Below are positions 3,098 to 64,000 of a stretch of 64,000 nucleotides of DNA, piece after piece (positions within the stretch are counted from its first letter, which is position 1; the number at the start of each line of letters is the position of its first letter). Made by a program: the position numbers and the translations under genes. The stretch spans positions 2,136 to 66,135 of the forward strand of contig JAHBAU020000005.1 in assembly GCA_018499905.2 (NCBI GenBank), read 5' to 3'. The notes beneath the pieces were generated by a model that was given only the letters and a program-made list of their open reading frames with translations, had not been told where the DNA came from and made no database searches. This DNA comes from Candidatus Saccharimonadota bacterium. Its GTDB lineage: Bacteria > Patescibacteriota > Saccharimonadia > Saccharimonadales > AQU-01.

Positions 3098-3457
3098 ATG
3101 GATAACAAACCAGCCTCGACAGGCACACAACTTTCGAATACGGGCAATCCTCAGGACATTGGTGGCCAAAATATAACTGCACCCAAAACCGACCTGCAAA
3201 CGACGCTGACCCAGAGTAGTAACAGTACAAATTTCAATATCACGAGTGTTGGGGACAGTACTTTTAAGCCTTTTGAGGCATCCACAACTACGTCATCATC
3301 GTTAGGGGCAGAGCTTGACGGTACCGTACCAACGCCTGTTAAAGGGACAAATTTTATGCTGGTAGCCGGTGTTGCCATCATTGTCCTACTTCTTTGTGCC
3401 CTCACGACCTGGGTTTTGTATAAGGATTCCCAAAAAAGACTTATAAAGCGAGCTTAG
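3098..3457 (+). CDS. Small tail-anchored membrane protein, hypothetical
   Basis: 119-aa ORF between the two paralogues. Ser/Thr/Asn-rich N-terminal part with a single C-terminal TM (FMLVAGVAIIVLLLCALTTWVLY). AGAGGGG lies upstream of the ATG. Confidence 0.45.
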   Translation: MDNKPASTGTQLSNTGNPQDIGGQNITAPKTDLQTTLTQSSNSTNFNITSVGDSTFKPFEASTTTSSSLGAELDGTVPTPVKGTNFMLVAGVAIIVLLLCALTTWVLYKDSQKRLIKRA

Positions 3458-3460
3458 GCA

Positions 3461-5353
3461 ATGAAACGAAAACAGTCGATAGAGCAGTTACCAGACTCAC
3501 CAATTCAAGAGCAGCTTGAAGCAAAAGTGCGGGAAATGCTGGGCCCTGACTATACCAGTGCGCCACCGACTCTAGACAAGCCCGCTGAATTGCAGGCCGC
3601 GGAAGATGATCAGCAGGTAGTAGCGCCAGAGACCGACCAACCAGAAGACCGGATAGCTGAAGATATTGAAGAACCCGAAGACGCTGCGACACAGCGTGCA
3701 GTTCACGAAATTGAATTGAGCGAAAGCGATCGAATTCTGGAAGCTGAGGATAAAGAGATTGAAGCGGCATTTGAGCCAGAAAAATTGTCGTTTGGGAATC
3801 GAATAAAACAATTCTTTAGTCGATGGTGGCGCAGCCCGATAAAACGTAATACTACCCTCGCAGTAGTGCTGTTCGGTCTAGCTGCCGTTGCTGTAGTACC
3901 GGCCGGACGATATTTTGTATTAAATACCGTCGGTGTCCGCGCATCGTCGAGTATGACTGTTATTGATGCTGCTAGCCAGCAGCCTATCAAAAACGCCACA
4001 GTGGCAATTATGGGTGTTTCTGGCCAGACCGACAGCGAGGGCCGAGTAACGCTCAGTTCTTTGCGCTTAGGGCCGGCTGATCTGACGGTCAATAAGCGGG
4101 CCTACGCCCAGATCACTAAACGTATTACCGTCGGCTGGGGGAGTAACCCGCTCGACAGCCTGCAACTGGTGGCTTCTGGAGAACAGTTTACGTTTGTTGT
4201 CACCGACTATCTTTCCGGAAAGCCTGTCAGTGATGCCGAAGCTAGTGTTGGCGGCTCAGACGCTAGTGCTGATAACGAAGGACGAATTTTATTGGCTACC
4301 GAACCTGGTGATGATGCTTCAGAAGTGACAATCTCTGCCAAAAATTATCGCAGTGAAAAAGTGAAGCTAGGCGATGATATTAAGGCCGAAGTCTCAGTGA
4401 AGATGGTGCCGGCACGTAAAAGCGTGTTCGTGTCCAAGCGTAATGGCAAATATGATCTGTATAAAATCGATGTTGACGGCCAAAATGAAAAGCTGGTTTT
4501 GGCCGGTAGCGGGGTTGAGCGGTCCGACATGGCGCTCGTCAGCCATCCCACAGATGAAGTTGTCGCCTTTGTTTCCACGCGCGAAAACATCCGAAACTCT
4601 GACGGCTATCTCCTCAGCACGTTGACAGTTGTTGACCTGTCCAATGACTCAACCCAAAAAGCTGCCCAAGCCGAACGAATTGAAGTCTTGGGTTGGTCGG
4701 GATCAAAGCTCTACTATGTTCAAACTGTTGCTGGTGCCAGTGCCGGCAATCCAGAGCGACAAAAAATCGTTAGCTATGATTATAAAGACAGCAAATCGGC
4801 AACTATCACAACCGCAAATTACTTTAACGACCATGTGCTTGTCGGCGACAGTCTGTACTATGCGGCCTCGGCGGCATTTAATCCTGACAAAGCTGGTTTA
4901 TACAAGGTCGGTACATCCGGTTCTGCGCAACAGCTGCAGCCCAAAGAAGTATATGGGATTTACCGGATGGCCTATGACCGGCTATCGTTTGTAACCGATA
5001 ATAACGCGTGGTATGAAACCGTTCTTGGCCAGTCTTCGTCGTCCAAATTAACCGGGGTACCCGCCAATCCAGTTCTCAGAGTCTATACCGATAGTCCTGA
5101 TGGCTCAAAGAGCGTTTGGGTCGACCAACGAGACGGCAAGGGCGTGCTGCTTTCATATAACAAAGCATCCAAAGAGGACACGATTATTCAGAACCTTGGT
5201 GGCTTACGAGGCCCGGTTCGTTGGTTGAGTGACAAAGTACTGGTGTATAGAATTGCCGATGGGTCAGAGATTGCTGACTACGCTTTCAATATCGAAGGCG
5301 GTGAACCAAAGAAAATCCGTGACGTTACTTTGACAAACGGTGCGGGCGACTAG
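3461..5353 (+). CDS. Membrane-anchored surface protein, paralogue of 1245..3056 (CarboxypepD_reg-like plus PD40-like repeats)
   Basis: 630-aa ORF with an acidic N-terminus, then a TM helix, then IDAASQQPIKNATVAI-type repeats. SPDGSKSVWVDQRDGKGVLL is colinear with the upstream paralogue. Confidence 0.6.
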   Translation: MKRKQSIEQLPDSPIQEQLEAKVREMLGPDYTSAPPTLDKPAELQAAEDDQQVVAPETDQPEDRIAEDIEEPEDAATQRAVHEIELSESDRILEAEDKEIEAAFEPEKLSFGNRIKQFFSRWWRSPIKRNTTLAVVLFGLAAVAVVPAGRYFVLNTVGVRASSSMTVIDAASQQPIKNATVAIMGVSGQTDSEGRVTLSSLRLGPADLTVNKRAYAQITKRITVGWGSNPLDSLQLVASGEQFTFVVTDYLSGKPVSDAEASVGGSDASADNEGRILLATEPGDDASEVTISAKNYRSEKVKLGDDIKAEVSVKMVPARKSVFVSKRNGKYDLYKIDVDGQNEKLVLAGSGVERSDMALVSHPTDEVVAFVSTRENIRNSDGYLLSTLTVVDLSNDSTQKAAQAERIEVLGWSGSKLYYVQTVAGASAGNPERQKIVSYDYKDSKSATITTANYFNDHVLVGDSLYYAASAAFNPDKAGLYKVGTSGSAQQLQPKEVYGIYRMAYDRLSFVTDNNAWYETVLGQSSSSKLTGVPANPVLRVYTDSPDGSKSVWVDQRDGKGVLLSYNKASKEDTIIQNLGGLRGPVRWLSDKVLVYRIADGSEIADYAFNIEGGEPKKIRDVTLTNGAGD

Positions 5354-6218
5354 CAGATTTTTTTGCGTCTGCCATGTCGGGAGTAATCTCACAAATAGTA
5401 AGCTTGCCATCTGATTTTAATCGACCTCGAAACACGCGATTGCGAAGCCAATAAGGTTCGGTCGAGGCGTCAACTTGACGGACTTTTTGGACCAAGCCAG
5501 TCGCTTTCAACGACGAAGTAATAAGGTCGCGCTCCTTATCGGTATTTTCATGAATCATATGGGTCAACTGGGCGTTGTGTCGAATTATGCCAATGCCAAT
5601 GTCTAGTGATGCGGCTCCAACCCAAAGAACCCGACCATCGAGTAAGTTTGATCGTTGAAAATTATCCCAAAACGATAAATGATCAAGATGCCGCGGGTCA
5701 CCTGTATGGCTGGCAGCCCAGAAGCGAACATGGTGTCGATGCCGCGGGGAACCGCCCACCGGCATTTCAAAACCTATATCCTGGTTTCTGCCGAATAAAT
5801 ACAAATTGCTGAACGGCGCGTTGACGTAGGACTTATTCTGAATGAGTGCTACAAAAAGTTTTAAAATCGTCCGAGGTGTCCGCCGGTCGGCCACAAACCA
5901 ACCGGCTTTGCCCATGGCGACTATTAACTCTTCTCTGGTGGCATAGACGCCGATATTAACTGGGTCACTGGCAAACCCATCGGGGGTTGTGCAGTAGTAT
6001 GGCAGGTGTTTGGGAGGGGCTATGAGCCTAATAAAACGAATAACTGTGGGAATAAATATATAAGCAATCAAAATGTAGGTTGCAAAAATAGCCGCCGGTT
6101 CAAATGGCAGTAAATCGCTGACTTCAGGAAAAACGTTCTTGAGCGCCAGGTAGGTCACAATGACACCCGGCACCAGAACACTTACCCGCTTTAGTAGTCG
6201 GATGATGAAAGTTACCAT
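5325..6218 (-). CDS. LssY C-terminal domain-like membrane protein
   Basis: 297-aa ORF with two N-terminal TM helices. The motif LYLFGRNQDIGFEMPVGGSPRHRHHVRFW resembles the LssY_C family. Family assignment is from memory only. Confidence 0.5.
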   Translation of the reverse strand: MVTFIIRLLKRVSVLVPGVIVTYLALKNVFPEVSDLLPFEPAAIFATYILIAYIFIPTVIRFIRLIAPPKHLPYYCTTPDGFASDPVNIGVYATREELIVAMGKAGWFVADRRTPRTILKLFVALIQNKSYVNAPFSNLYLFGRNQDIGFEMPVGGSPRHRHHVRFWAASHTGDPRHLDHLSFWDNFQRSNLLDGRVLWVGAASLDIGIGIIRHNAQLTHMIHENTDKERDLITSSLKATGLVQKVRQVDASTEPYWLRNRVFRGRLKSDGKLTICEITPDMADAKKSASRPHRLSK

Positions 6219-11035: not shown

Positions 11036-11230
11036 ATGGCCTACAAGCACACTAATTCAAAAGGGGTGACTTACTACCTTAATTCTAAAGTTGTAACACT
11101 TCGTGGTGGCAAACAGCAGACTATCTATTACTTCAGCAAGGACGAGCGTCCTGAAGGTTGTGAGCTGCCAGCTGGTTTTTCAGTAAACGAAAACCCACGC
11201 AATGGTTTCTTGACCGTTAAGCGCGGTTAA
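11036..11230 (+). CDS. Small basic hypothetical protein (64 aa)
   Basis: ATG 8 nt after AGAGGGAG. The upstream part of the track ORF contains a TTGACA -35 box (10967-10972), so the short form is preferred. Confidence 0.5.
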   Translation: MAYKHTNSKGVTYYLNSKVVTLRGGKQQTIYYFSKDERPEGCELPAGFSVNENPRNGFLTVKRG

Positions 11231-15125: not shown

Positions 15126-15557
15126 ATGCAAACAAACAGAAACTACTACCAGCAAAAATCATCCAAAAAACGATGGTTTATTATTGCATTTATTGTCCTG
15201 TTGTTCGTGGCGATAATTATTTTCGTCGTGTGGTTGTTTTCTCGATACACTCGCTCGGATCCGCCAAGTATAACCAGCGTAAAAGGAGCGAGCACCCAGA
15301 TTGAAGTTAAAAAGAACACCGTCATTGAGACCGAGATGATTCCTTTTGGCGTGAAGACCGTAGATGATGCGACGAAGTATGTTGGCTCATCAACTGTTAT
15401 CACGCCCGGGGCTTACGGCGTTCGCACTATGACATACGAAGTAACCCCCGGCGCAGCCCCAGGCCAAGAAAAAAAGCTCATCAGCGATGAAGTAACCACC
15501 GCCCCAGTCGATAAAGTAGTCTCGATAGGCACAAAAAAATCCGGTGACCCGGAGTAA
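15126..15557 (+). CDS. Membrane-anchored G5 domain protein
   Basis: N-terminal TM followed by a G5-like segment (IPFGVKTVDDATKYVGSSTVITPGAYGVRTMTYEVT...VDKVVSIGTK). Confidence 0.6.
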   Translation: MQTNRNYYQQKSSKKRWFIIAFIVLLFVAIIIFVVWLFSRYTRSDPPSITSVKGASTQIEVKKNTVIETEMIPFGVKTVDDATKYVGSSTVITPGAYGVRTMTYEVTPGAAPGQEKKLISDEVTTAPVDKVVSIGTKKSGDPE

Positions 15558-17090: not shown

Positions 17091-18389
17091 AAGGCCGGCT
17101 GCGAACGTCATAACAAAACAGAGCACGATGGTTGATTGGTAAAGTTTTGAGCTGTCAAACAAACCAAGTACTGCAACCGTTACTAAGCCGGCAACCCGTG
17201 ACACAGCATTATTAATGCCAGATGCGATGCCGGAATCTTCATCGGCCACTGCACCCATCACTGTAATTGTTAAGGGCGATACCGTGACTGCTAAGCCTGT
17301 CGCGAAGAGTAGTACGCCGGGCAATACGCTGGTTAGGTAACCAGCTCCTGACTCTAAGCCGTAGAGGTATAAGATGCCAATACTTGCAATGATTGGCCCG
17401 GCTGTCATGAATCGTCTGGGCCCGTATTGCCCGGCCAGCCGGCCAGCTCTGGCGGACAGTAGCAGTAACATGGCGGTTATGGGGATAAGGCTGAGTCCAG
17501 CTTTGGTGCCGGAATAGCCCAGGACTGTTTGAAGGTGTATGACGAGCGCAAATAAAAAGGCGCTCAGGGCTCCATACATGGTAAAAGTCATAAGGTTGGC
17601 GCCGCTAAAATTCCGCGAACCAAAAAGCTGCAATTTGACCATCGGATCGGCCGTCTGGCGCTCTCGCCAAAGAAAAGCCAAGATTGCCAGTACGCCAATA
17701 CCAATACTCAGTAGCGCCACTCCGTCCCATTGGCGATTCGGCCCCTCTATCAAGCCGTAGGTAAGGCCGGCCAAGCTGATGGCCGCAAAACCGGCGCCCG
17801 GTACGTCTATACGCCGAGCCTTCGCTGAACTGCGAGATTCCTTCATGCCCAGCACGGCTAGTATGCAGCAAACAATAACGAGCGGCACATTGATGATAAA
17901 TATCCAGCGCCATGACATGGTGTCGACAATGTAGCCACCAAGTGTTGGCCCGATTGCTGCTGACAATGCTGACCATGCCGTCCAGGTTCCAATCGCGCCG
18001 GCGCGGGCAGATTTTTCAAAATTGGCGGTAATGTTTGCCAGCCCGCCGGGAACAAGTAGTGCGCCGAATACCCCCTGAAGTGCCCGGGCAGCAACTAAAA
18101 ATGACGTACTTGGCGCCAGCCCGCACAATAATGAAGATAGCCCAAACCCAACCAGCCCAATCACATACATTTTTTTGCGGCCAAAAATATCACCTAGTGA
18201 ACCGCCAAGCAGCAAGAGGGCGGATAGCGTCAGCAAGTAGCCGTTTACTATCCATTGAAGGCCGCTAAATCCCGCTCCCAGATCACTTGAGATGTGCGGA
18301 AGGGCAATATTTACAACTGTCCCGTCCAAAATCACAATCCCGCTTCCAAGAATGGTCGCTGCCAGCGTCAATCTTTGTTTTGTTGTCAT
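17049..18389 (-). CDS. MFS transporter, DHA2 (EmrB/QacA-like, about 14 TM)
   Basis: 446-aa polytopic ORF with the MFS motif GGSLGDIFGRKKM. The 3' end overlaps the convergent ftsB-like gene by 42 nt. Confidence 0.85.
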   Translation of the reverse strand: MTTKQRLTLAATILGSGIVILDGTVVNIALPHISSDLGAGFSGLQWIVNGYLLTLSALLLLGGSLGDIFGRKKMYVIGLVGFGLSSLLCGLAPSTSFLVAARALQGVFGALLVPGGLANITANFEKSARAGAIGTWTAWSALSAAIGPTLGGYIVDTMSWRWIFIINVPLVIVCCILAVLGMKESRSSAKARRIDVPGAGFAAISLAGLTYGLIEGPNRQWDGVALLSIGIGVLAILAFLWRERQTADPMVKLQLFGSRNFSGANLMTFTMYGALSAFLFALVIHLQTVLGYSGTKAGLSLIPITAMLLLLSARAGRLAGQYGPRRFMTAGPIIASIGILYLYGLESGAGYLTSVLPGVLLFATGLAVTVSPLTITVMGAVADEDSGIASGINNAVSRVAGLVTVAVLGLFDSSKLYQSTIVLCFVMTFAAGLLSLWLIRTPQKEV

Positions 18390-18973: not shown

Positions 18974-19713
18974 TGGCCCTCTTAGTACTGTCGTTTATTG
19001 CCGGTGTGCTGACGGTTGCCGCGCCGTGTATTTTGCCGCTGTTGCCGGTTATTGTTGGTGGCTCACTTTTGAATAGATCACAAGAAGCTCCCGAAAAGCG
19101 TTGGGTAAGGCCGGTGATTATTGCTGGTAGCCTGGCGGTTTCGGTTATGGTTTTTACGCTATTATTAAAGGCAACCACCTCGCTACTCGGCGTGCCGCAA
19201 TCGGCTTGGCAAATACTGTCGGGTATTATCGTGACTGGCCTGGGGCTGTACTACCTTTGGCCAAAAATCTGGGAAACGGTCTCGTTTAAGGGCGGCCTTA
19301 TGATCAAAAGTAATGCTGTGTTGGCTAGAGCCAACCGTGTTAATGGCTGGGCGGGCCCGGCGCTCATTGGTGCATCACTAGGGCCGGTATTCAATAGCTG
19401 TAGCCCGACGTACGCGCTGATTGTGGCGACAATTTTGCCAGTGTCATTTGCCTCCGGGCTCCTGTATCTTATGGCCTACGCGGTTGGCATGAGCCTGACT
19501 TTATTAACGGTCGCATATGCTGGACAGGCAGCGACTGCCAAGTTACGATTTGCGGCTAACCCGGTTGGCTGGTTTAGGCGCAGTATCGGACTCATCTTTA
19601 TTATTGTGGGCCTATCGGTCATCTTTGGATTAGACAAACAATTTCAGACGTATGTACTAGAGCGCGGTTGGTACGACCCAGTAAGCTCTATTGAGCGTCG
19701 CTTGGCAAAGTAG
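18973..19713 (+). CDS. ccdA: Cytochrome c biogenesis/thiol-disulfide transporter CcdA (DsbD TM domain)
   Basis: TAATG overlap with the thioredoxin gene. Conserved APCILPLLP and SCSPTY Cys motifs, six TM helices. Confidence 0.8.
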   Translation: MALLVLSFIAGVLTVAAPCILPLLPVIVGGSLLNRSQEAPEKRWVRPVIIAGSLAVSVMVFTLLLKATTSLLGVPQSAWQILSGIIVTGLGLYYLWPKIWETVSFKGGLMIKSNAVLARANRVNGWAGPALIGASLGPVFNSCSPTYALIVATILPVSFASGLLYLMAYAVGMSLTLLTVAYAGQAATAKLRFAANPVGWFRRSIGLIFIIVGLSVIFGLDKQFQTYVLERGWYDPVSSIERRLAK

Positions 19714-45776: not shown

Positions 45777-46745
45777 CTAATGAGACAGGGTGTCTCTAAA
45801 CACCTGCATTTGATCTGCAGTACCTACACTTACTCGTACATAAGTCTTGTCCAAGCCACAGTTGCTCGCGCCATTTCCATGATTGACCCTAATGTCTGCC
45901 TGTTCTAATTTTTCGACAAAAGAAGTCGCACCAGACTCGTCGGCAAACCTTAGGAGTACGGCATTAATGTGGCATGGTATGACTTGATATCCGAGTTGGG
46001 CTAAATAACTTTCAGTTTTCTGCCGCTCACTGATTATCGACTCCCGCATTTTCATAAAATAATCTTCATGGTTAAGCGCCGTGACAGCGGCACCGACAGA
46101 AGTATAAGCAACATTGAACCAGGTAGACTCAAGTGTAATTTGCTCCAATACCTCAGGATGAGCAACAATGTACCCAATTCTGAATCCGGCAAGGGCATAG
46201 CCCTTTGAAAAACTCCGAAGAACAATCAAATTCTTATTATTGGCAACATCACCAATTACCGAGTCGTCAAAAAAGTCACCGTATGCCTCATCAATAACAA
46301 TCTTGGCGTTTGGATTATTGGCCACTAAATCCAAAATTGTTTCTCGTTTTGTCACGCCAGCTGGATTGTTAGGATTTGCAAGGAAAATCAGTGAGGCGCC
46401 ATCAATCTTAGATGTTGATATTGAGTATGTACTATCTTCTAATGACTGATGCTCAGTGAATTTACCCCCAAGTTTCTTGGCATCGGTATAGCAAATATAT
46501 GTTGGGGTAAAAACATGAGTATCACTACCGAAAGTGGCACAGAGCAGCGTAATGGCTTGATCTGCCCCCGCCGTCAAATACACGCTATCCATTGACACCC
46601 CGTGTTTGTCAGCAATCTTTTGTCGCAGCTCTTCTGGTTGGTGAAAGTAAGAATTACTAGCTGTTGCGTATGCAGCAAGACCGCCGGCAATAAAGTCAGG
46701 CAGTTTATCTTTAATAGTTGTGAAACTCAAATCAATTGCTGGCAT
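45777..46745 (-). CDS. Class I/II pyridoxal-phosphate aminotransferase (histidinol-phosphate aminotransferase-like)
   Basis: PLP-lysine context RSFSKGYALAGFRIGY and NPNNPAG. Confidence 0.8.
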   Translation of the reverse strand: MPAIDLSFTTIKDKLPDFIAGGLAAYATASNSYFHQPEELRQKIADKHGVSMDSVYLTAGADQAITLLCATFGSDTHVFTPTYICYTDAKKLGGKFTEHQSLEDSTYSISTSKIDGASLIFLANPNNPAGVTKRETILDLVANNPNAKIVIDEAYGDFFDDSVIGDVANNKNLIVLRSFSKGYALAGFRIGYIVAHPEVLEQITLESTWFNVAYTSVGAAVTALNHEDYFMKMRESIISERQKTESYLAQLGYQVIPCHINAVLLRFADESGATSFVEKLEQADIRVNHGNGASNCGLDKTYVRVSVGTADQMQVFRDTLSH

Positions 46746-46808: not shown

Positions 46809-46827
46809 TGGTAGCCATCGATAGAAC
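46809..46827. repeat. Putative attL (core TGGTAGC plus element-side arm CAT-CGATAGAA)
   Basis: Read directly from the sequence. The arm is the exact inverse of 53252-53259. Confidence 0.65.
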
Positions 46828-47033
46828 GACTTGGAACTCAATCAAGGCAGAACTCATTATCATGTGGCAGATAGTATCTGATTATCAGAAGTTATACATC
46901 AAGTAGTCTTAAGCGGCTTTAACAGAACCAGAGGTAGTAACTATAGACATAAGATTGTATTACTGTAAATAATATTGCTTATGGTTTGAAGTACAGTTCT
47001 TTTGCAGTAGTATCAATACAGAGGTAAAAGTTT

Positions 47034-48887
47034 GTGAAACTGAAAGCGTTTAGAGTAAAGAATTTCAAGTCAATCATTGATTCTGGATTGACTCATCTTT
47101 CAGTGGACTACATTACTACGGTTATAGGTCAAAATGAGTCTGGCAAGTCAGCACTTATTGAAGCTCTCGATAGTTATTTTAAGGGAGTTATATTAGAAAA
47201 AGACATAAGACATGATGATGGAGATTTACCGTCTGTTGATTGTGTATATGCAACGAGTGAAGCAGAAATCAGAACGATACTTGATGAGTATCAATTACCA
47301 GAGGCAGTGGTGCAAGCATTACGTGCGAACTCATGGGAGTTTACCTTACAGCGAACATGGGTTACTGATTTAGCTAAAGGTGAACTGAGCCTCATTCTGC
47401 CATCACTAACAGATGATGATTTTACATACTCGGAAAGCGAATCCGAGCAGGAAAAAGAAACTCCAAGTCCTGAGGAACCAGACCTACCACCTGAGCCAAA
47501 GAAAAAACAGCTGACAGTAAAAGCCATGACTGATCTATTATTCGAGAACGTGCCCATCATAATATTTTTTGACAAACAAGAGCACATACTTCCAGCGACC
47601 ATTGACATTAAAAGTCTCAATACTTCAAAATCCGTTAAAGGAAAAGCAGCCGCACTAAACTTTTTAAAGCTTGTCGGTCTTGACGACTTAACTTACTTTA
47701 ACGATCGTAAAAATAGAGCCAAAATACAACACAAAATAGAGAAAGAAGCCATAAAGTTCACAAAAGACTTTCAAGTTTTCTGGCAACAGGAAATAGGTGC
47801 AAGCATCACAGGTTCTCAAAATGTTAAGGGAGAGAAAGTCGAGATAAAATTTGGCGTTGATGCCCATGATGGTGGCGAAGAAGCAGGAACAGGCTCCTAT
47901 CTTTATTTTATTGTAGGAGATGGCAAACAACTTTTGCATCCTGATCAGCGTAGTGATGGCATGCGATGGTACATCTCATTTTATCTACAGCTCAGAGCCT
48001 ATTCTCAAAATGGCGAGAGGCCACAAGTGATAGTCATGGATGAGCCTGGACAGTTCTTACATGCAAGTGCACAAGAGGACTTATTGAAGCTATTCGAAGC
48101 TGAAGCAAATGAAAACGTAAACATCATATACACCACCCACTCTCCGTTTATGGTTGGACAAGGAGATAAAATTAATAGAATCATTGCTGCTCAACGATCA
48201 CCACACAAAAAGAATGACGGATACAGTCATACGGAAATTATGAGTGGTTTTGAGCTCGGTGCTGCTTCAAGAAATACACTATTCCCATTAATGGCTCATA
48301 TGGGTATGAGATTGTCAGATCAGGAAGTTATAAAGCGAGAGAATAACTTAATTACTGAAGAAATATCAGCTACTTACTATATCAAGGCATTCCTACTACT
48401 GAATGGAAAAGACATAGATGTAAATATCATAGCTTCGACTGGTGCTGATAATGTGCCACAGTTATGTTATGAGTTTTTGGGTTGGGGGCTTAAATTCAGC
48501 GTACTACTAGACGGTGATAAAAAGGGAGAAAAAGTACGTAATAATTTAAAGCGCGATTTATTTTTAGATGATGACGAAATAGCCAACAAGAATGTTTATC
48601 GAATGCGTGGTCATAACGGCATCGAGGATATTTTTACCCAAAAGGATTTTAAGAAACATGTCTTAGGCGATGAATCGGTGTCATATACTGGCGATAATTC
48701 AAAATACGTAGATGAGCAAAAACTTCCCAAAGCTGTTCTTGCAGCAATATTCTTGCAGAAAGTTAAGGAAGGTCATATTGCAATCGAGGGAGATGACGGA
48801 CTCATGCCAACTACGAAAACAAATATACAAAAAGTAGTAAACGCTGTAGAAAAGTTAATTTCTAATCAGGCAAGTCGCTCTGAGTAG
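47034..48887 (+). CDS. OLD-family ATP-dependent nuclease (ABC/AAA_15-type ATPase plus C-terminal Toprim)
   Basis: GTG start after GAGGTAAAAG. FRVKNFKSI N-terminus, Walker A GQNESGKS, signature-like SDGMRWYISFYLQL, Walker B VIVMDEPGQFLH, THSPFM. Toprim-like ITEE...VLLDGDKKG...GIEDIF. Confidence 0.75.
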   Translation: MKLKAFRVKNFKSIIDSGLTHLSVDYITTVIGQNESGKSALIEALDSYFKGVILEKDIRHDDGDLPSVDCVYATSEAEIRTILDEYQLPEAVVQALRANSWEFTLQRTWVTDLAKGELSLILPSLTDDDFTYSESESEQEKETPSPEEPDLPPEPKKKQLTVKAMTDLLFENVPIIIFFDKQEHILPATIDIKSLNTSKSVKGKAAALNFLKLVGLDDLTYFNDRKNRAKIQHKIEKEAIKFTKDFQVFWQQEIGASITGSQNVKGEKVEIKFGVDAHDGGEEAGTGSYLYFIVGDGKQLLHPDQRSDGMRWYISFYLQLRAYSQNGERPQVIVMDEPGQFLHASAQEDLLKLFEAEANENVNIIYTTHSPFMVGQGDKINRIIAAQRSPHKKNDGYSHTEIMSGFELGAASRNTLFPLMAHMGMRLSDQEVIKRENNLITEEISATYYIKAFLLLNGKDIDVNIIASTGADNVPQLCYEFLGWGLKFSVLLDGDKKGEKVRNNLKRDLFLDDDEIANKNVYRMRGHNGIEDIFTQKDFKKHVLGDESVSYTGDNSKYVDEQKLPKAVLAAIFLQKVKEGHIAIEGDDGLMPTTKTNIQKVVNAVEKLISNQASRSE

Positions 48888-48965
48888 TTTCTTCTAAAGA
48901 TGACTCTATATCGATAAGTATTTTGAAAAACTCAACTAATGATTTTATATCTGAGTCCGATAAAC

Positions 48966-49391
48966 TCATTGGTTAAATTCCGGCACGATCAAAGTTGGTT
49001 CAGGCACTGGAGATAACTCTACTTGGTTATTCTCGCGCTCAATTCGCAAACGTCCTAATTCTGCTTCTGATAAGGCGAACCATGCCCCAAAGAACAATAA
49101 CCAAGCGATGATAAATAGAATAATTACTTTTAAGATTCGCCACCATAGCTTTTGCTTAGGCTTAGATTGTTTACGTCTTATGTAGTAGTTAGCTAATAAG
49201 ATAGTGATGATAAGTAAAAATAGTCTCGTATACGGAAAGATTGGGTAAAGAAATGTTTGTAGTTGATTCTCTAGAAGTGTAAGTATCGTTTCAAAAACAA
49301 AATTTCCAAAAATAAATAACAGAACCGCACTTGCATAGACTTTGATTTTATTGACTTTGTGTTGAGGCTTTTCTTCTTCTGGCATAGACAC
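48966..49391 (-). CDS. Small 3-TM membrane protein, hypothetical (island cargo)
   Basis: AAAGGAG RBS 7 nt upstream of the ATG. Three hydrophobic helices separated by basic loops (RRKQSKPKQKLWWR). Confidence 0.6.
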   Translation of the reverse strand: MSMPEEEKPQHKVNKIKVYASAVLLFIFGNFVFETILTLLENQLQTFLYPIFPYTRLFLLIITILLANYYIRRKQSKPKQKLWWRILKVIILFIIAWLLFFGAWFALSEAELGRLRIERENNQVELSPVPEPTLIVPEFNQ

Positions 49392-49413
49392 TCCTTTTTA
49401 TTTGGGGTGTCGT

Positions 49414-49443
49414 AAATAAAAAGGACAACCCCTCTAGGTTGTC
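49414..49443 (-). terminator. Terminator-like hairpin between the HEPN-motif gene and the 3-TM gene
   Basis: Minus strand reads GACAACC-TAGAGGG-GTTGTC followed by CTTTTTATTT. It ends about 22 nt upstream of the 49391 start codon. Confidence 0.5.
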
Positions 49444-49573
49444 TACACCAGCACAAGGTTGTACCCTTGCGTTTTTCGAGAGATTGCCCTTTTTGGGTAC
49501 AACCAATCGAAGATTGGCTTATTTACAAGCTTGTACTGATGTAGACCTCTTTATAATAACAGAGGTTGAACTG

Positions 49574-50734
49574 TTATTTAGAGTCTTTTGGACGTTTCTT
49601 CTCAAGCTCTTCTTTTATTTCTTCCATGAGGTCTTTAAGGCTAGGGTGATATCCATCCGGATACATATCGCTAAACATGGGTTCTCTTTCTGTAGTTCGA
49701 GGTATCAATGCCTTTGAGTCGATCTTACCTCCGACTGCCTTTATCATTTCTTTTCTAAATAAATGCTCTGGCAGATCAAGCTCTTCGGGCTTAATAAAAC
49801 CAACTCCTAGGCGAACCTGCTCTTGCTCTAAATCTTTGATAATTTCAAATAAAATATCAACTAAATCACGACACTTCTCTACAGCTTCCTTACTTTCACT
49901 ATACTGAAAGTTAGTTATTGCAAAGCGATGCACTGCGCGGTTTCTTACATCGTACAGTTCGTTTATCCGTTTGAAGAAAAGCACTTTATCGTAGTTAGGA
50001 AAGACAACTTCATCTTCGGCAAGCTTATATATACCACGCTCCGTTATGAATTTACCGCCTTCTTTTTGCTCAAATAATTCTCGGAAATCCGGATCAACTC
50101 TTTTTGTCTTTCTCACATTAATTCTTGTAAGCAATATCGAGTATCTTAACTGTGTGTCTAACAGTGCTACAAGTAGTATAAGTGCTTCCAGATAGTCACG
50201 AGTGTTATCAAGCTCGTCCATAGAGTCACGGAATAGTAGTGTAAGGGACATGAATGCACTCATGAAATTATCAAACGGGTACTGATCGAGGTGGTTCTTG
50301 TAGTCTGCCTGCTTAAAATCATTAAACTTACTTATATTATCTTCAATGAGCTTCTTGAGATATTCTGCATCCTTTTCGAGACCTTTTACAGTGCCTTTAT
50401 CCTTTAAGCCAAAAGAACCAACTGAAACTCTGTAATCTTTCCAGTCATATATACGAAGAAAACCGTTCTCAGACATTGCAAAGTATTCCCAAGTTGTCTT
50501 ATCGTCAACAAAGCGCATGCCGGCTGCTTCCATAATGTCAACGTATGCTACATCAAAAATGAATTCTAGAAAGTGGAAAGCGATTCTTGGATTAACATCA
50601 ACATGCAAAATTCCACTTCCGCCCCAAGGCTTAGGCAGGTCATCAGCTGTTTCCACGAAAGCAAAGCGATCCTGAAGTTGCTTTCGGATTGTCTTTAACT
50701 CTTTGAGTAGTTTTGAACTATCATTGTCACTCAC
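49574..50734 (-). CDS. Uncharacterised 386-aa protein with C-terminal HEPN-type RNxxxH motif (putative RNase effector)
   Basis: GTG start. LYDVRNRAVHRF (RNRAVH encoded at 49928-49945) sits in a helical C-terminal half. The N-terminal ~200 aa have no recognisable domain. Confidence 0.55.
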   Translation of the reverse strand: MSDNDSSKLLKELKTIRKQLQDRFAFVETADDLPKPWGGSGILHVDVNPRIAFHFLEFIFDVAYVDIMEAAGMRFVDDKTTWEYFAMSENGFLRIYDWKDYRVSVGSFGLKDKGTVKGLEKDAEYLKKLIEDNISKFNDFKQADYKNHLDQYPFDNFMSAFMSLTLLFRDSMDELDNTRDYLEALILLVALLDTQLRYSILLTRINVRKTKRVDPDFRELFEQKEGGKFITERGIYKLAEDEVVFPNYDKVLFFKRINELYDVRNRAVHRFAITNFQYSESKEAVEKCRDLVDILFEIIKDLEQEQVRLGVGFIKPEELDLPEHLFRKEMIKAVGGKIDSKALIPRTTEREPMFSDMYPDGYHPSLKDLMEEIKEELEKKRPKDSK

Positions 50735-51029
50735 TACATTAATTTAAACAGCTAACAGTAGTAAAAGTCCATATAACTGGCTTGCTCTCTGCATCGATGT
50801 CCTATAACACCCCCCTGTGTTTTCTGACAACTGTCGAGCGAAGCCGAAGAGCGTTGCACAATGTCGAATATTGTGCGATGACCCAGTTGCACTGTTCATG
50901 TCGCAAAAGAACTTTTGCGATCTTGAGCGCGCTTGCCGATGTGCCCCACCTTCTCTTTTGCTCTTCCGTTTTCTGTACCAAGTGCTCACACAAAATTTTT
51001 TCTAGAATCGAGTGTCTATAATAAAGAGT

Positions 51030-51491
51030 ATGGCAAAGAGTAATAACCGACAGCCAACCCATGAAGAGCTTCTAGCGATGACGTACAAGCAATTATTAGA
51101 GCTAAATCTTAAAGTAGATTTAATGGACAGGAAGCTAGAGAACCTTCAACATGATATTAGTCAGAGTACGTTCGTGCGTAGTGAACTTATTAAACTCAGG
51201 TTTGACCATAAAACAGACGAGCTTTATATCACTGAGTTTTTCAAAATACCATTTGAGGGTAACGAAGCGGTTTTGTTACGAGCAATGTTTAAGCTGTCTA
51301 ATGGTCTACCTAAGAAGTCGGTCAAGTTCTATACGGCTGAATTGGCAGGTTCTTTTAAGAAAGATACAGACGGGCTTAAAACAGCATCTTCAGTACATGG
51401 AACAATAAAAAGAATAGATGCAACCGTAAAGCACAGGACAATGGGCTTGGAAATCTTCAAAATCAAAACTAAAGTTTTCTTTTTTCTGTAA
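51030..51491 (+). CDS. Putative winged-helix DNA-binding protein (island regulator)
   Basis: The C-terminal half NEAVLLRAMFKLSNGLPKKSVKFYTAELAG...SSVHGTIKRIDATVKH resembles an OmpR/CadC-type wHTH. The N-terminus is coiled coil. Confidence 0.4.
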   Translation: MAKSNNRQPTHEELLAMTYKQLLELNLKVDLMDRKLENLQHDISQSTFVRSELIKLRFDHKTDELYITEFFKIPFEGNEAVLLRAMFKLSNGLPKKSVKFYTAELAGSFKKDTDGLKTASSVHGTIKRIDATVKHRTMGLEIFKIKTKVFFFL

Positions 51492-51549
51492 TTTACAGAT
51501 AAGAAATTCACGAAAATTCACATTGTGGCTGATTTGCTTTAATGAGCTA

Positions 51550-51732
51550 ATGAAGCTCCGAAGCGATACGGTCATCTCAATCGATCAAGCGAAAAAATTG
51601 CTTGGCGATGAAGCTTTGTCTATGACCGATGAAGAGATTCAAGATCTCATAGATGACTTTGATGTTATAGCTCAATACACTATCAAAATGGTTCAAGAGT
51701 TTGATAATAATGAAAGTAAACAGATGCAATAA
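51550..51732 (+). CDS. Small acidic protein (60 aa) immediately upstream of the recombinase
   Basis: ATG-initiated ORF (MKLRSDTVISIDQAKKLLGDEALSMTDEEIQDLIDDFD...). Its stop is 8 nt before the recombinase ORF. Confidence 0.4.
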   Translation: MKLRSDTVISIDQAKKLLGDEALSMTDEEIQDLIDDFDVIAQYTIKMVQEFDNNESKQMQ

Positions 51733-51740
51733 ATGATAAA

Positions 51741-53303
51741 ATGGTTCTAAGTATGCAATGTGTAGGTTATGTAAGGGTATCAACCGAAGAACAAGTGCAC
51801 GGCACTAGCCTAGACATGCAACAAAAGGCTTGCTTTGACTTTGCAAAGTCAAACGGCTGGGAACTACCAAAAGAAAATATCTTTCGTGATGAGGGACAAT
51901 CAGCAAAAGCAACCAATAGACCACAGTTACTGGCGATGCTCGAATTTTGTAGGAAGAATAAGGGCAAAATAGATAAGTGCATTGTTTGGAAGCTCGATAG
52001 ATTTGCGCGTAACTCAGATGATCATGTATTGATACGCACGGCTCTAAAAAAGAACGGCGTCAGTTTAGTTTCCGTAACTGAGCCTATTGATCAAAGCCCG
52101 ACTGGAAAGCTCATGGAAACGATGCTCTCAGGCTTCGCAGAGTTCGACAATGACATCAGAACGTTTAGAACTACTGAAGGTATGAAAAAACGCCTAGAGC
52201 AAGGTGGTTGGCCTCATGATGCGCCAATCGGCTATGTGAAGTCCAAGACCTCGCAAGGAATCACAAGTATTTCGCCAGACCCAGACATGGCACCTATTGT
52301 GAAGGAATTTTTAGAAACTTTTGCTACTGGTCAATATACAGTTAAGCAAGCAAAAGACTTAGCTTTTGAAATGGGATTAAAAGGTAAAAAGGGTAATAAG
52401 CGTACATGGCAGACTACAGAGAATATGCTGAAAAACCCAATATATGCCGGCTACATTCAATCTAAATATACAGATTACAAAAGGTTGGCAGGCTTACACC
52501 AAGCACTGATAGCACCAGATATTTTTGAAAAGAATCAGAGAATACTTTCTGGCAAAAACAGAATACAGTTCAAAAACGATGATTCAGAGTACCCACTGCG
52601 TAGAGATTTCTTAAAGTGTGGCTACTGTGAAAAGTTTGTAACAGGTAGTGCTCCTCGTGGAAACGGCGGAAGATACCCTCGCTATGGCTGTATGTACTGT
52701 AAATCATCAAAGATTGGTGGAAAGAAAGTTAGTAAAAGTAGCGAAGAGGTTCACAAGGAATTTAGATACATATTGTCGAGGATTCGATACAACGAAGGAA
52801 GACTAAAACTATTCAAACAAATTGTGCTAACTCGTTGGTGTGATGAGTATGATGACGCTTTAAAATCGGCTCATGAAATTAATCAAGACATCGACAAACT
52901 CAAAGCAGAACGTTCACGTACTATTCGTAAGTTTACTGCTGATCAAATCAGTTATCAGGAGAAAGAATCAGTAGTAAAAGATATAGATACTGAGATTGAG
53001 AACCTAGAGAACAAGAAGCTTGAAGCTGATATCTATGCTAATCAAAAAGAGAAGATCGTTGAAAATGCTATTTTGTTCATGGAAGACCCATCTGAGTTCT
53101 GGAACCGAGCACCTTTACAGATACAGAAACGTGTTCAACGCATCATTTTTCCAGAAGGTTTGAGCTATGACTTCGAAAATGGTTTTGGAACCGTAAAAGT
53201 CAACGAATCTTATCTGTTAATAAACAAAATAGCCGGCGAGCCGGCTATAAATTCTATCGTGGTAGCGGGGCCAGGACTCGAACCTGGGACCTCGTGGTTA
53301 TGA
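51741..53303 (+). CDS. Large serine recombinase/integrase
   Basis: Catalytic GYVRVSTEEQ, resolvase domain, recombinase domain, zinc ribbon CGYCEKFV...YGCMYC, and coiled coil. The last ~14 codons are the complement of the tRNA. Confidence 0.9.
   Translation: MVLSMQCVGYVRVSTEEQVHGTSLDMQQKACFDFAKSNGWELPKENIFRDEGQSAKATNRPQLLAMLEFCRKNKGKIDKCIVWKLDRFARNSDDHVLIRTALKKNGVSLVSVTEPIDQSPTGKLMETMLSGFAEFDNDIRTFRTTEGMKKRLEQGGWPHDAPIGYVKSKTSQGITSISPDPDMAPIVKEFLETFATGQYTVKQAKDLAFEMGLKGKKGNKRTWQTTENMLKNPIYAGYIQSKYTDYKRLAGLHQALIAPDIFEKNQRILSGKNRIQFKNDDSEYPLRRDFLKCGYCEKFVTGSAPRGNGGRYPRYGCMYCKSSKIGGKKVSKSSEEVHKEFRYILSRIRYNEGRLKLFKQIVLTRWCDEYDDALKSAHEINQDIDKLKAERSRTIRKFTADQISYQEKESVVKDIDTEIENLENKKLEADIYANQKEKIVENAILFMEDPSEFWNRAPLQIQKRVQRIIFPEGLSYDFENGFGTVKVNESYLLINKIAGEPAINSIVVAGPGLEPGTSWL
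53252..53266. repeat. Putative attR (element-side arm TTCTATCG plus core TGGTAGC)
   Basis: Read directly from the sequence. The core is the complement of the tRNA 3' terminus GCTACCA. Confidence 0.65.
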
Positions 53304-53334
53304 GCCACGCGAGCTGCCGCTGCTCCACCCCGCG
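53260..53334 (-). tRNA. tRNA(CAU), initiator (fMet)-like, CCA encoded
   Basis: 5' CGCGGGGTGGAGCAGCGGCAGCTCGCGTGGCTCATAACCACGAGGTCCCAGGTTCGAGTCCTGGCCCCGCTACCA. Close to the E. coli tRNA-fMet acceptor and D arm, with a C1/U72 mismatch and an A11:U24 pair. Confidence 0.9.
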
Positions 53335-63653: not shown

Positions 63654-63730
63654 TGGCAGGGTAGCTCAGTTGGTTAGAGCACAGGACTCATAAGCCTGGG
63701 GTCGCGAGTTCAAATCTCGCCCCTGCTACC
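63654..63730 (+). tRNA. tRNA(CAU), elongator type (Met or Ile2), CCA encoded
   Basis: GGCAGGG-TA-GCTC-AGTTGGTTA-GAGC-A-CAGGA-CTCATAA-GCCTG-GGGTC-GCGAG-TTCAAAT-CTCGC-CCCTGCT-ACCA. The 31:39 position is an A/G mismatch. Confidence 0.85.
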
Positions 63731-63733
63731 AAA

Positions 63734-63762: not shown

Positions 63763-63850
63763 TATTTGGTCATCGGCTGATTGTGTTCGTGACCCCAGTG
63801 GCGGTCGCAGAATTTTGTCAAATCTATTGATTTGTACAAAATATAGCGAT

Positions 63851-63920
63851 GGCAGAACTAGTAGCGCAAGCGGATAGTTATGTCATCTAAGCGTTCGTTC
63901 AAATCTCGCCCCTGCTACCA
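63851..63920 (+). pseudogene. Degenerate tRNA copy sharing the 3' 24-26 nt of tRNA 63654..63730
   Basis: GGCAG...TCAT..AAGC...GTTCAAATCTCGCCCCTGCTACCA. The acceptor and T stems no longer pair and it is 7 nt shorter than the intact gene. Confidence 0.4.
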
Positions 63921-63953: not shown

Positions 63954-64000
63954 GTTTGGTGAGAGTGATTGGTCGCGACCCCAGTGGCGCATGGCTCTGG

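Follow-up and report, generated by a model that had tools for sequence, protein, structure and literature searches.

Large serine recombinases (LSRs) are known from systems such as phiC31, Bxb1, A118/LI, TP901-1, SPbeta SprA and CcrAB of SCCmec, and those that have been characterized mostly target protein-coding genes. We describe here a 64,000-nt stretch of DNA from a Candidatus Saccharimonadota bacterium (contig JAHBAU020000005.1, referred to below as the window) in which positions 46809-53266 very probably constitute a 6,451-bp non-conjugative and non-phage integrative element that was inserted by an LSR at the CCA terminus of a tRNA-Met gene of the initiator type and that carries attP inside the open reading frame (ORF) of its own integrase. 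The window integrase has the same domain set and fold as the known LSRs listed above. The element also resembles LSR systems in its short and simple attachment sites, where the scant identity between attP and attB amounts to a 7-bp core, and in having a small ORF next to the integrase that could be a directionality factor. Unlike the characterized LSRs, however, the window integrase targets the CCA end of a tRNA gene, has its predicted attP within its own ORF and would have its C-terminus altered upon integration. The word tRNA is absent from a large survey of LSRs (PMC10083194).

Several other mobile elements share individual features with this locus. Islands of the Islander class also insert into the 3' end of tRNA genes, regenerate the gene and leave a displaced tRNA fragment at the far end (PMC4383910), and they too have the integrase gene beside the tRNA, an AT-rich composition and defense-like cargo. 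However, they use a tyrosine integrase and a repeat of tens of bp while the window element has a serine integrase and a repeat of 7 bp, and in the window the integrase ORF additionally overlaps the tRNA gene on the opposite strand. The "suicidal" integrases of the SSV type, from archaeal viruses and plasmids, have a recombination site within the gene of the recombinase itself, which is split by integration, but these are tyrosine recombinases whose genes are cut into two inactive halves (PMC8371274). In the window only the last ~30 codons would be exchanged, with the catalytic and DNA-binding domains kept in one ORF. Recombinases whose action interrupts the gene encoding them have been stated to be an archaea-only phenomenon (PMC8371274), a generalization that the present island contradicts. 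Conceptually, and by analogy, the closest relative of this arrangement is integration-dependent immunity. For example, the mycobacteriophages BPs, Brujita and Charlie have attP within an ORF, C-termini that depend on integration state and integration itself as the sensor, but there the split gene is a repressor, the integrase is of the tyrosine type and the tail that is removed is a proteolysis tag (PMC3694055). The split gene in the window is the serine integrase and the tail is a conserved helix motif containing Trp-Asn (W-N). Family searches gave no match to a repressor family among the island ORFs, and no protease-tag motif was identified in the tail by eye, no dedicated search having been made. 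A precedent for control in cis, albeit a synthetic one, is provided by engineered fusions of integrases with recombination directionality factors (RDFs), in which a fused appendage is reported to be able to set the direction of a serine integrase (PMC5737554). A minority of tycheposons carry LSRs, with an internal-attP architecture not being described for them, and a tRNA-Arg island of Riemerella has a tyrosine integrase. A literature search of incomplete coverage turned up no account of LSRs that both target tRNAs and have an internal attP.

An earlier note on this DNA had proposed an integrative island from a TGGTAGC repeat at its two ends and from 8-bp inverted arms within it. Both copies of TGGTAGC are present (Table 1), with the right copy being the complement of the tRNA 3' end ...GCUACCA according to the ARAGORN and Rfam tRNA call, and the arms occur as described, with 53252-53259 reading TTCTATCG and 46819-46826 reading the reverse complement of it, CGATAGAA. 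The 7-mer is not significant alone given that the + strand of the window contains 6 copies of it, and an inverted match of at least 8 bp to the 20 nt that adjoin the right core on its left was obtained for 0.2% of random 20-mers from the window. It is the comparative data that are decisive for the island, and not the short repeats. When the inner flanks are joined, with 51741-53266 followed by 46816-46906, they restore an uninterrupted integrase ORF of 538 codons that aligns without gaps across the junction with two homologs, P0229 and P0231, in which the junction is intact; the interpretation as an integrative island is upheld. The Logan contig that encodes P0229 (L020; 4,444 bp) overlaps itself at its ends by 30 bp, which implies a circle of 4,414 bp. 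This overlap equals k-1 for the Logan assembler, whose k we take to be 31. P0231 comes from a tandem array (L019) and is located at its internal junction; the array reads attL, element A, junction, element B and tRNA-Met.

The detached 3' end of the integrase gene begins with IDRTTWNSIKAELIIMWQIV... directly after the 7-bp left core and has the 8-bp arm CGATAGAA inside it. In the circular form the resulting tail comprises ~30 residues that are conserved (..TWNSIKAELIIMWQIV..) and that AlphaFold predicts to form a helix. A W-N-x-I-K/x-x-E-L motif follows the TGGTAG core at a constant spacing of 17 nt at the left ends of L019, L044 and L013, while at L011 the motif follows a degenerate core (TGTAGT) at a spacing of 16 nt. 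Over 11 copies of the tail the entropy by codon position is 0.72/0.44/1.16, and the Ile, Lys, Glu and Leu codons are used synonymously. This third-position variability together with the synonymous codons argues for constraint on the tail at the protein level. We also counted the tail by motif with a background control, as an iterated hidden Markov model of the short tail, run against the C-termini of cluster representatives, was too insensitive. Of 135 full-length representatives, 13 have a tail of the form [WY]N.[ILFVM], compared with 0.7% per 42-residue window as background, and the tail was retained in representatives that are only ~30-36% identical to P0231. These 135 representatives were among the top 149 of 998 clusters (50% identity, E<=1e-30) from an exhaustive HMMER search. 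Taken together, the continuity of the ORF, the homology of the tail and its conservation indicate that attP is inside the integrase ORF, with a conserved tail that is predicted to be swapped for a tRNA-dictated peptide upon integration.

The TGGTAG core also occurs at attL, at the junction or at attR of L019, L020 and L044, and comparison of attL, the internal junction and attR of L019 confines the crossover to TGGTAG, so that the tRNA remains whole. The attP sequence that is predicted for the window element is ...AATTCTATCGTGGTAGCCATCGATAGAACG... and the predicted attB sequence is ...TATCTATGCTTGGTAGCGGGGCCAGG...

The integrated form of the integrase does not end at the border of the island. 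The earlier note had the recombinase enclosed within the island; an LSR is indeed present there, but its ORF runs out of the island to a stop at 53303 within the tRNA gene. The ORF crosses the right core and continues for 12 further codons antisense to the tRNA gene, ending in ...NSIVVAGPGLEPGTSWL, such that the tRNA-derived C-terminus with the core included is 14 codons in length (..VVAGPGLEPGTSWL). The stop codon (TGA, 53301-53303) shares bases with the anticodon, whose + strand sequence is ATG (53300-53302). Such endings recur among relatives. Among the 120 closest homologs drawn from a collection of 5.8 billion proteins, 107 end in a peptide that is encoded antisense to the acceptor stem and T-arm of a tRNA, ..[VL]V[AP]xxG[LIF]EPxTxxL or a variant of it, and only P0229 and P0231 (2/120) have the tail in place of a tRNA-type end. 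Ends resembling tRNA were present in 93 of the 135 full-length cluster representatives described above. Finally, a family-alignment scan that was seeded on generic catalytic motifs, and that mostly recovers relatives of 25-45% identity, showed the integrase ORF to end in antisense tRNA at 34 of 80 distant metagenome loci, where the tRNAs that are hit are those for Arg, Lys, Asn, His, Asp, Gln, Met, Leu, Phe and Pro. Judged by these terminal peptides, an integrase ORF that ends in a tRNA gene is a trait of the family.

Assignment of the integrase itself is based on domain content and on predicted fold. The protein matches PF00239 (Resolvase) over residues 8-157 (3.5e-36), PF07508 (Recombinase; 7e-9) and PHROG 95, annotated "integrase" (6.5e-82), with the best match in the phage collection being ~31% identical and covering only the N-terminal 58%. 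The YxRVS motif with S14 and R12, the other active-site residues, and Cys296, Cys317 and Cys320 are invariant across 37 family members. An N-terminal catalytic domain is followed by a Recombinase domain and then by a zinc ribbon with an embedded coiled coil, which is the architecture of an LSR. An AlphaFold model of the homolog P0231 has a long helical hairpin (363-459) and matches the full-length SPbeta, Bxb1 and phiC31 integrases as well as the C-terminal LI-DNA complex (4kis), with E-values from 1e-8 to 4.5e-17. No island ORF gave a match to Phage_integrase (tyrosine), and the only recombinase of the island is of the serine type. By these criteria of homology and modeled structure the enclosed recombinase is a true LSR.

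The target of the element is an intact tRNA gene with two initiator-like characteristics, a C1xU72 mismatch and an A11:U24 pair, but with only 2 of the 3 usual G:C pairs in its anticodon stem. Approached from the side of the SDR gene that flanks it on the right (SDR identity 86%), the same tRNA is unoccupied in two relatives, L101 and L104, of which L101 has a tRNA identical to that of the window. Homology of both relatives to the window breaks exactly after CCA. On the far side of the island, the outer flank of attL reads CCA-AGCATAGATAAAATACC in the tRNA sense while L104 reads CCA-AGATAAAAGTC, with CCA-AG and AGATAAAA common to the two; a GAF gene, which in the window is present in the left flank along with a class I/II aminotransferase gene (45777-46745), is retained downstream of the tRNA in L104. 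The genes on the two flanks place the host among Saccharimonadales-like bacteria of the candidate phyla radiation. A left junction identical to that of the window is also present in SRR14479782 (L001). Sister islands adjoin other tRNA-fMet alleles. One of these (L018) has the same six genes at 78-89% nucleotide identity, and the other (L106) matches the window element in the small ORF, the integrase and the regulatory segment but has the cargo swapped for DUF4238, MFS and hydrolase genes.

Directly downstream of the unoccupied tRNAs of L101 and L104 are native terminators, and in the window the best terminator match of the region is a hairpin on the tRNA strand, located 11 nt downstream from where the tRNA ends and antisense within the integrase codons for NKIAGEPAI. 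When the 45 nt past the tRNA were folded at 33 loci where an integrase runs into a tRNA, most had a hairpin and a T-run, at approximately -16 to -27 kcal/mol. Because the native terminators of the unoccupied relatives stand at the same position, the element appears to replace the tRNA terminator that its insertion displaces, with the replacement coded antisense in the integrase gene.

We also observed that the linker preceding the core (KIAGEPAIN in the window, residues ~495-503) is variable among homologs, with versions such as IAPEGAKN, IASEEAKN, IADESAKN and IAQKGDSN. According to back-translation by hand, checked at the DNA level for the window, L018 and L044, linkers of the A-x-E-x-A type are what a GC-rich hairpin encodes. 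The antisense terminator may thus shape the protein sequence of the linker.

In the circular form the tailed integrase of 538 residues would be made and would catalyze recombination of attP with attB. Integration would then shift the segment that codes for the tail 6.4 kb away, to attL, after which only the tRNA-tailed integrase of 520 residues could be made. The small ORF upstream may assist as a directionality factor. We tentatively propose, with somewhat less than even confidence, that the two isoforms differ in activity, such that the tailed form would integrate while the tRNA-tailed form would be silent or prone to excision, giving control of direction that depends on the integration state. 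By analogy with the integrase-RDF fusions, the tail may act like, or against, a directionality factor. A broader and more doubtful proposal, to which we give roughly one chance in three, is that a clade of LSRs that targets tRNA 3' ends toggles between two isoforms by insertion as a built-in switch for directionality or commitment. The form with the W-N helix would then be available only from the circular element or from tandem junctions, and the other tail would be supplied by the antisense strand of the tRNA. At the level of the clade, LSRs directed at tRNA ends are abundant in Saccharibacteria and the candidate phyla radiation (CPR), with the arrangement being present in homologs down to ~25% identity. 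Evidence for recombination activity in the family is indirect and consists of the apparently circular L020, tandem arrays (L019) and the conserved small ORF as a candidate directionality factor.

A number of observations weigh against the reading of this locus as an element with an internal attP and a functional tail. The earlier note had called for a search for an empty site and for the circular junction, and neither search was successful: an exact empty site of the host is absent from the species-representative genomes and JGI metagenome contigs that were searched, with no conspecific empty site found and 0 matches to the exact attB pattern in the JGI contigs, and the attP junction predicted for the window element is unmatched in IMG/VR viral contigs. 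A protein scan of IMG/VR with P0231 likewise gave no match. The nearest relatives differ in synteny on the aminotransferase side; a search of species-representative genomes with the aminotransferase returned relatives at 26-30% identity only, and homologs at 81%, 75%, 66% and 62% identity are on contigs with different synteny and no upstream tRNA. The evidence that L020 is circular is a terminal overlap of the de Bruijn type, and a tandem repeat could produce one as well. The tail helix has a block-mean predicted local distance difference test (pLDDT) score of only ~32-58 in AlphaFold, with no predicted docking site, and the W-N codons, TGG-AAC, are placed where the zinc ribbon could contact the P' arm, so that conservation of the tail may in part be at the level of DNA. 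The palindrome that the earlier note proposed for attP is clear in the window (11/24 around TGGTA/G, with 8 contiguous) and in L020 (10/24), but it is not conserved among related sites, as dyad symmetry is weak in the three other attP sites that we reconstructed. A scan of all five sites found no consistent center, and the palindrome consequently cannot be used to fix the crossover dinucleotide.

One alternative accepts the island and its attachment sites as real but assigns no regulatory meaning to the exchange of tails: attP would be located at the 3' extreme of the gene for compactness, with the tail either dispensable or conserved as P'-arm DNA. This is a realistic possibility that falls a little short of an even chance. 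It is favored by the location of the catalytic, recombinase, zinc-ribbon and coiled-coil parts entirely upstream of the core, by the distance of the invariant W-N codons (TGGAAC) from the presumed center, ~18-24 bp, which is within a typical attP half-site, and by the low confidence of the tail helix and its lack of docking on the protein body. However, conservation of the tail extends to ~65 nt from the core, which is past the half-site length established for LSRs, and it is periodic by codon, with synonymous codons for Leu, Ile, Lys and Glu. Moreover, the [WY]N.[ILFVM] tail survives in the distant representatives noted above, and a mirror-image TGGAAC was not found in the P arm. Other functions of the tail take up the probability that these two readings leave.

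The island could also be a decayed and immobile prophage or the remnant of a phage satellite, with its repeats being relics. Its small size, AT-rich composition, position beside a tRNA and phage-type integrase (PHROG 95) would fit such an origin, and decayed tail remnants are known in other genomes, with three in L013 and one in L011. Nevertheless this origin is improbable, as the island has no matches to capsid, terminase, replication or packaging genes in the family searches, the similarity of its integrase to phage proteins is low and confined to the N-terminal portion, and the split ORF retains its two halves undamaged and in frame. The related elements are of similarly small size, 4.4-6.7 kb, and one of them is apparently circular while others are in tandem. 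Least probable is that the repeats are fortuitous and that the tRNA has no relation to the recombinase, which would be a resident invertase or resolvase. At the frequency of TGGTAGC in the window, a second copy within 6.5 kb would be unremarkable, but chance does not account for an ORF that is continuous over the rebuilt junction and homologous there to P0229 and P0231, for the family-wide recurrence of integrase ORFs that end in tRNA genes, for a tRNA that is unoccupied in relatives, or for a full LSR architecture that is unlike that of a small invertase. The junction homology and the family-wide tRNA endings effectively refute this explanation.

The island itself is an ordinary type of element with defense-like cargo. 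What is new is the combination of an LSR directed at a tRNA end, an attP in the integrase ORF with exchange of the tail, and a terminator coded antisense, an architecture that is common to a very large and mostly uncultivated clade. Control of direction in serine integrases is an active structural question, with cryo-electron microscopy structures from 2025-2026, and a natural integrase whose C-terminus varies with the integration state provides a variant of such control that can be tested directly. If true, the isoform toggle would represent, among bacterial serine recombinases, a counterpart to the self-splitting integrases of archaea and to integration-dependent immunity. The 3' ends of tRNAs are both universal and conserved, and LSRs for which these ends are the attB, along with the predicted attP sites, could be useful in genome engineering. 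Additionally, elements of this family, 4-7 kb in size, may be a major route by which defense genes enter the reduced genomes of the CPR. There is also a consequence for annotation, in that integrase ORFs in databases commonly end in an antisense-tRNA peptide that is an artefact, with the native C-terminus located kilobases away.

Table 1. Features of the island and its target tRNA gene, in window coordinates
Feature	Positions	Strand	Remarks
attL core TGGTAGC	46809..46815	+	repeats the complement of the tRNA 3' terminus GCUACCA
Detached integrase 3' end / P' arm, 29 codons IDRTTWNSIKAELIIMWQIVSDYQKLYIK and stop	46816..46906	+	in frame once attP is rejoined
617-residue OLD/AriA/GajA-like ABC-type ATPase with Toprim-like C-terminal half, cargo	47034..48887	+	conserved in L018
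141-residue cargo protein, hydrophobic/membrane-associated by eye	48966..49391	-	family matches all sub-threshold; present in L018
386-residue cargo protein, sub-threshold HEPN (RiboL-PSP) match	49574..50734	-	DUF4238 gene in the same position in L106
159-residue ORF, no family in searches	51012..51491	+	153-residue ORF at the equivalent position in L018
69-residue ORF directly upstream of the integrase	51523..51732	+	no database family matches
Large serine recombinase, integrated form, 520 residues	51741..53303	+	codons to ~53266 are element-derived
Intrinsic-terminator-like hairpin ATAGCCGGCTCGCCGGCTAT, then TTTGTTTATT	53219..53248	-	best terminator match in the region
P-arm half of the 8-bp inverted repeat, TTCTATCG	53252..53259	+	
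attR core TGGTAGC	53260..53266	+	complement of tRNA positions 70-76 (GCUACCA)
Initiator-type tRNA-Met(CAT), integration target, B' arm, intact	53260..53334	-	ARAGORN and Rfam

The gene content of the island is as the earlier note described it, namely an LSR, two small ORFs and defense-like cargo, with family searches of the island ORFs giving no matches to replication, capsid, terminase, packaging or conjugation families. The contrast in base composition that it reported is also real, though smaller than its hand count of 33-40% against 47-55% GC: the island has 38.6% GC while the remainder of the window has 47.4%, and in 500-nt windows the fraction ranges from 0.35 to 0.44 in the island and from 0.41 to 0.53 in the flanks. 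In an all-against-all comparison the integrase was common to 6 of 6 elements and the small ORF upstream of it to 5 of 6, which argues that these two genes form a minimal mobility module with the rest being exchangeable cargo. This small ORF is conserved in five elements (the window, L019A, L019B, L020 and L044), with a core of ~50 residues that contains ..T.S..EA[RK]K[IL]LG....[ST]D[EG][EQ][IL].., and a small ORF is in the same position in L018 and L106 as well. From its location and conservation it is a candidate directionality factor or regulator. For the 159-residue ORF, a regulatory role is only a guess. The 617-residue ATPase, whose profile matches mark it as putatively defense-like, matches Pfam AAA_15 (4e-21) and the PADLOC profiles AriA (7e-22) and Old (2e-17), while its Toprim half is matched by PADLOC profiles only, these being ATPase-Toprim (4e-15, 290-523) and GajA (3e-11, 325-545). 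An AriB partner for this AriA-like ATPase was not identified among the island genes.

Several additional observations concern members of the integrase family. Four database entries (P0159, P0160, P0161 and P0214) are 297-396 residues in length and have the Recombinase domain only, without an N-terminal catalytic domain and with a tRNA-derived peptide at the end. These entries could be the result of mis-called starts or could be truncated and inactivated copies. One distant member of the family, L023, was considered to represent a subfamily whose crossover is shifted and lies at a site other than a tRNA. We rejected this reading since an IS21-like insertion interrupts the integrase tail of L023 at that point; from ~11513 onward, directly after CTCAACCATTG, there is an IstB-like C-terminus on the opposite strand.

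Tail-coding remnants were observed in two genomes. L013 (JGI 3300065078 Ga0558060_0000004) is a 762-kb Saccharimonadia-like contig that has three of them within ~4.3 kb on the minus strand, at 15133-15255, 17415-17567 and 19363-19473 of the reverse-complement string, two after an intact TGGTAG and one after a core that is degenerate. Among the genes called there we noticed no integrase, and the remnants probably represent an array of elements of this family that have decayed. L011, where the aminotransferase is 75% identical to that of the window, has the degenerate core TGTAGT and a tail remnant (..NWNAIQEELTRWMQV..) at ~3134-3250 on the minus strand. This remnant is upstream of the aminotransferase ortholog (3348-4310), which is the same relative position as attL of the window, and the site thus seems to have been occupied repeatedly.

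Repeats were also present near other tRNA-Met genes. A third tRNA-Met(CAT) gene of the window (63655-63731, +), whose 3' end is also GCUACCA, has its last 24 nt (63708-63731) repeated exactly 189 bp downstream (63897-63920), and after each copy there is a hairpin terminator, similar in the two cases, and then GACCCCAGTGGCG (63791-63803 and 63977-63989). This looks like a scar of integration or excision, or a small duplication. In L101 a 17-nt sequence ~160 nt downstream of the unoccupied tRNA-fMet (CCTGGCCCCCACTACCA, 11042-11058) repeats the 3' end of the tRNA imperfectly and is followed by three unannotated ORFs; it may be an att scar or the boundary of a different type of island at the same tRNA. 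Finally, just past the terminator of the unoccupied tRNA-fMet in L104, a GC-rich 25-nt sequence, GCCGGGGGCATGTCGCAAGGCCGGA, occurs twice (5367-5391 and 5478-5502), with the two copies 111 nt apart.

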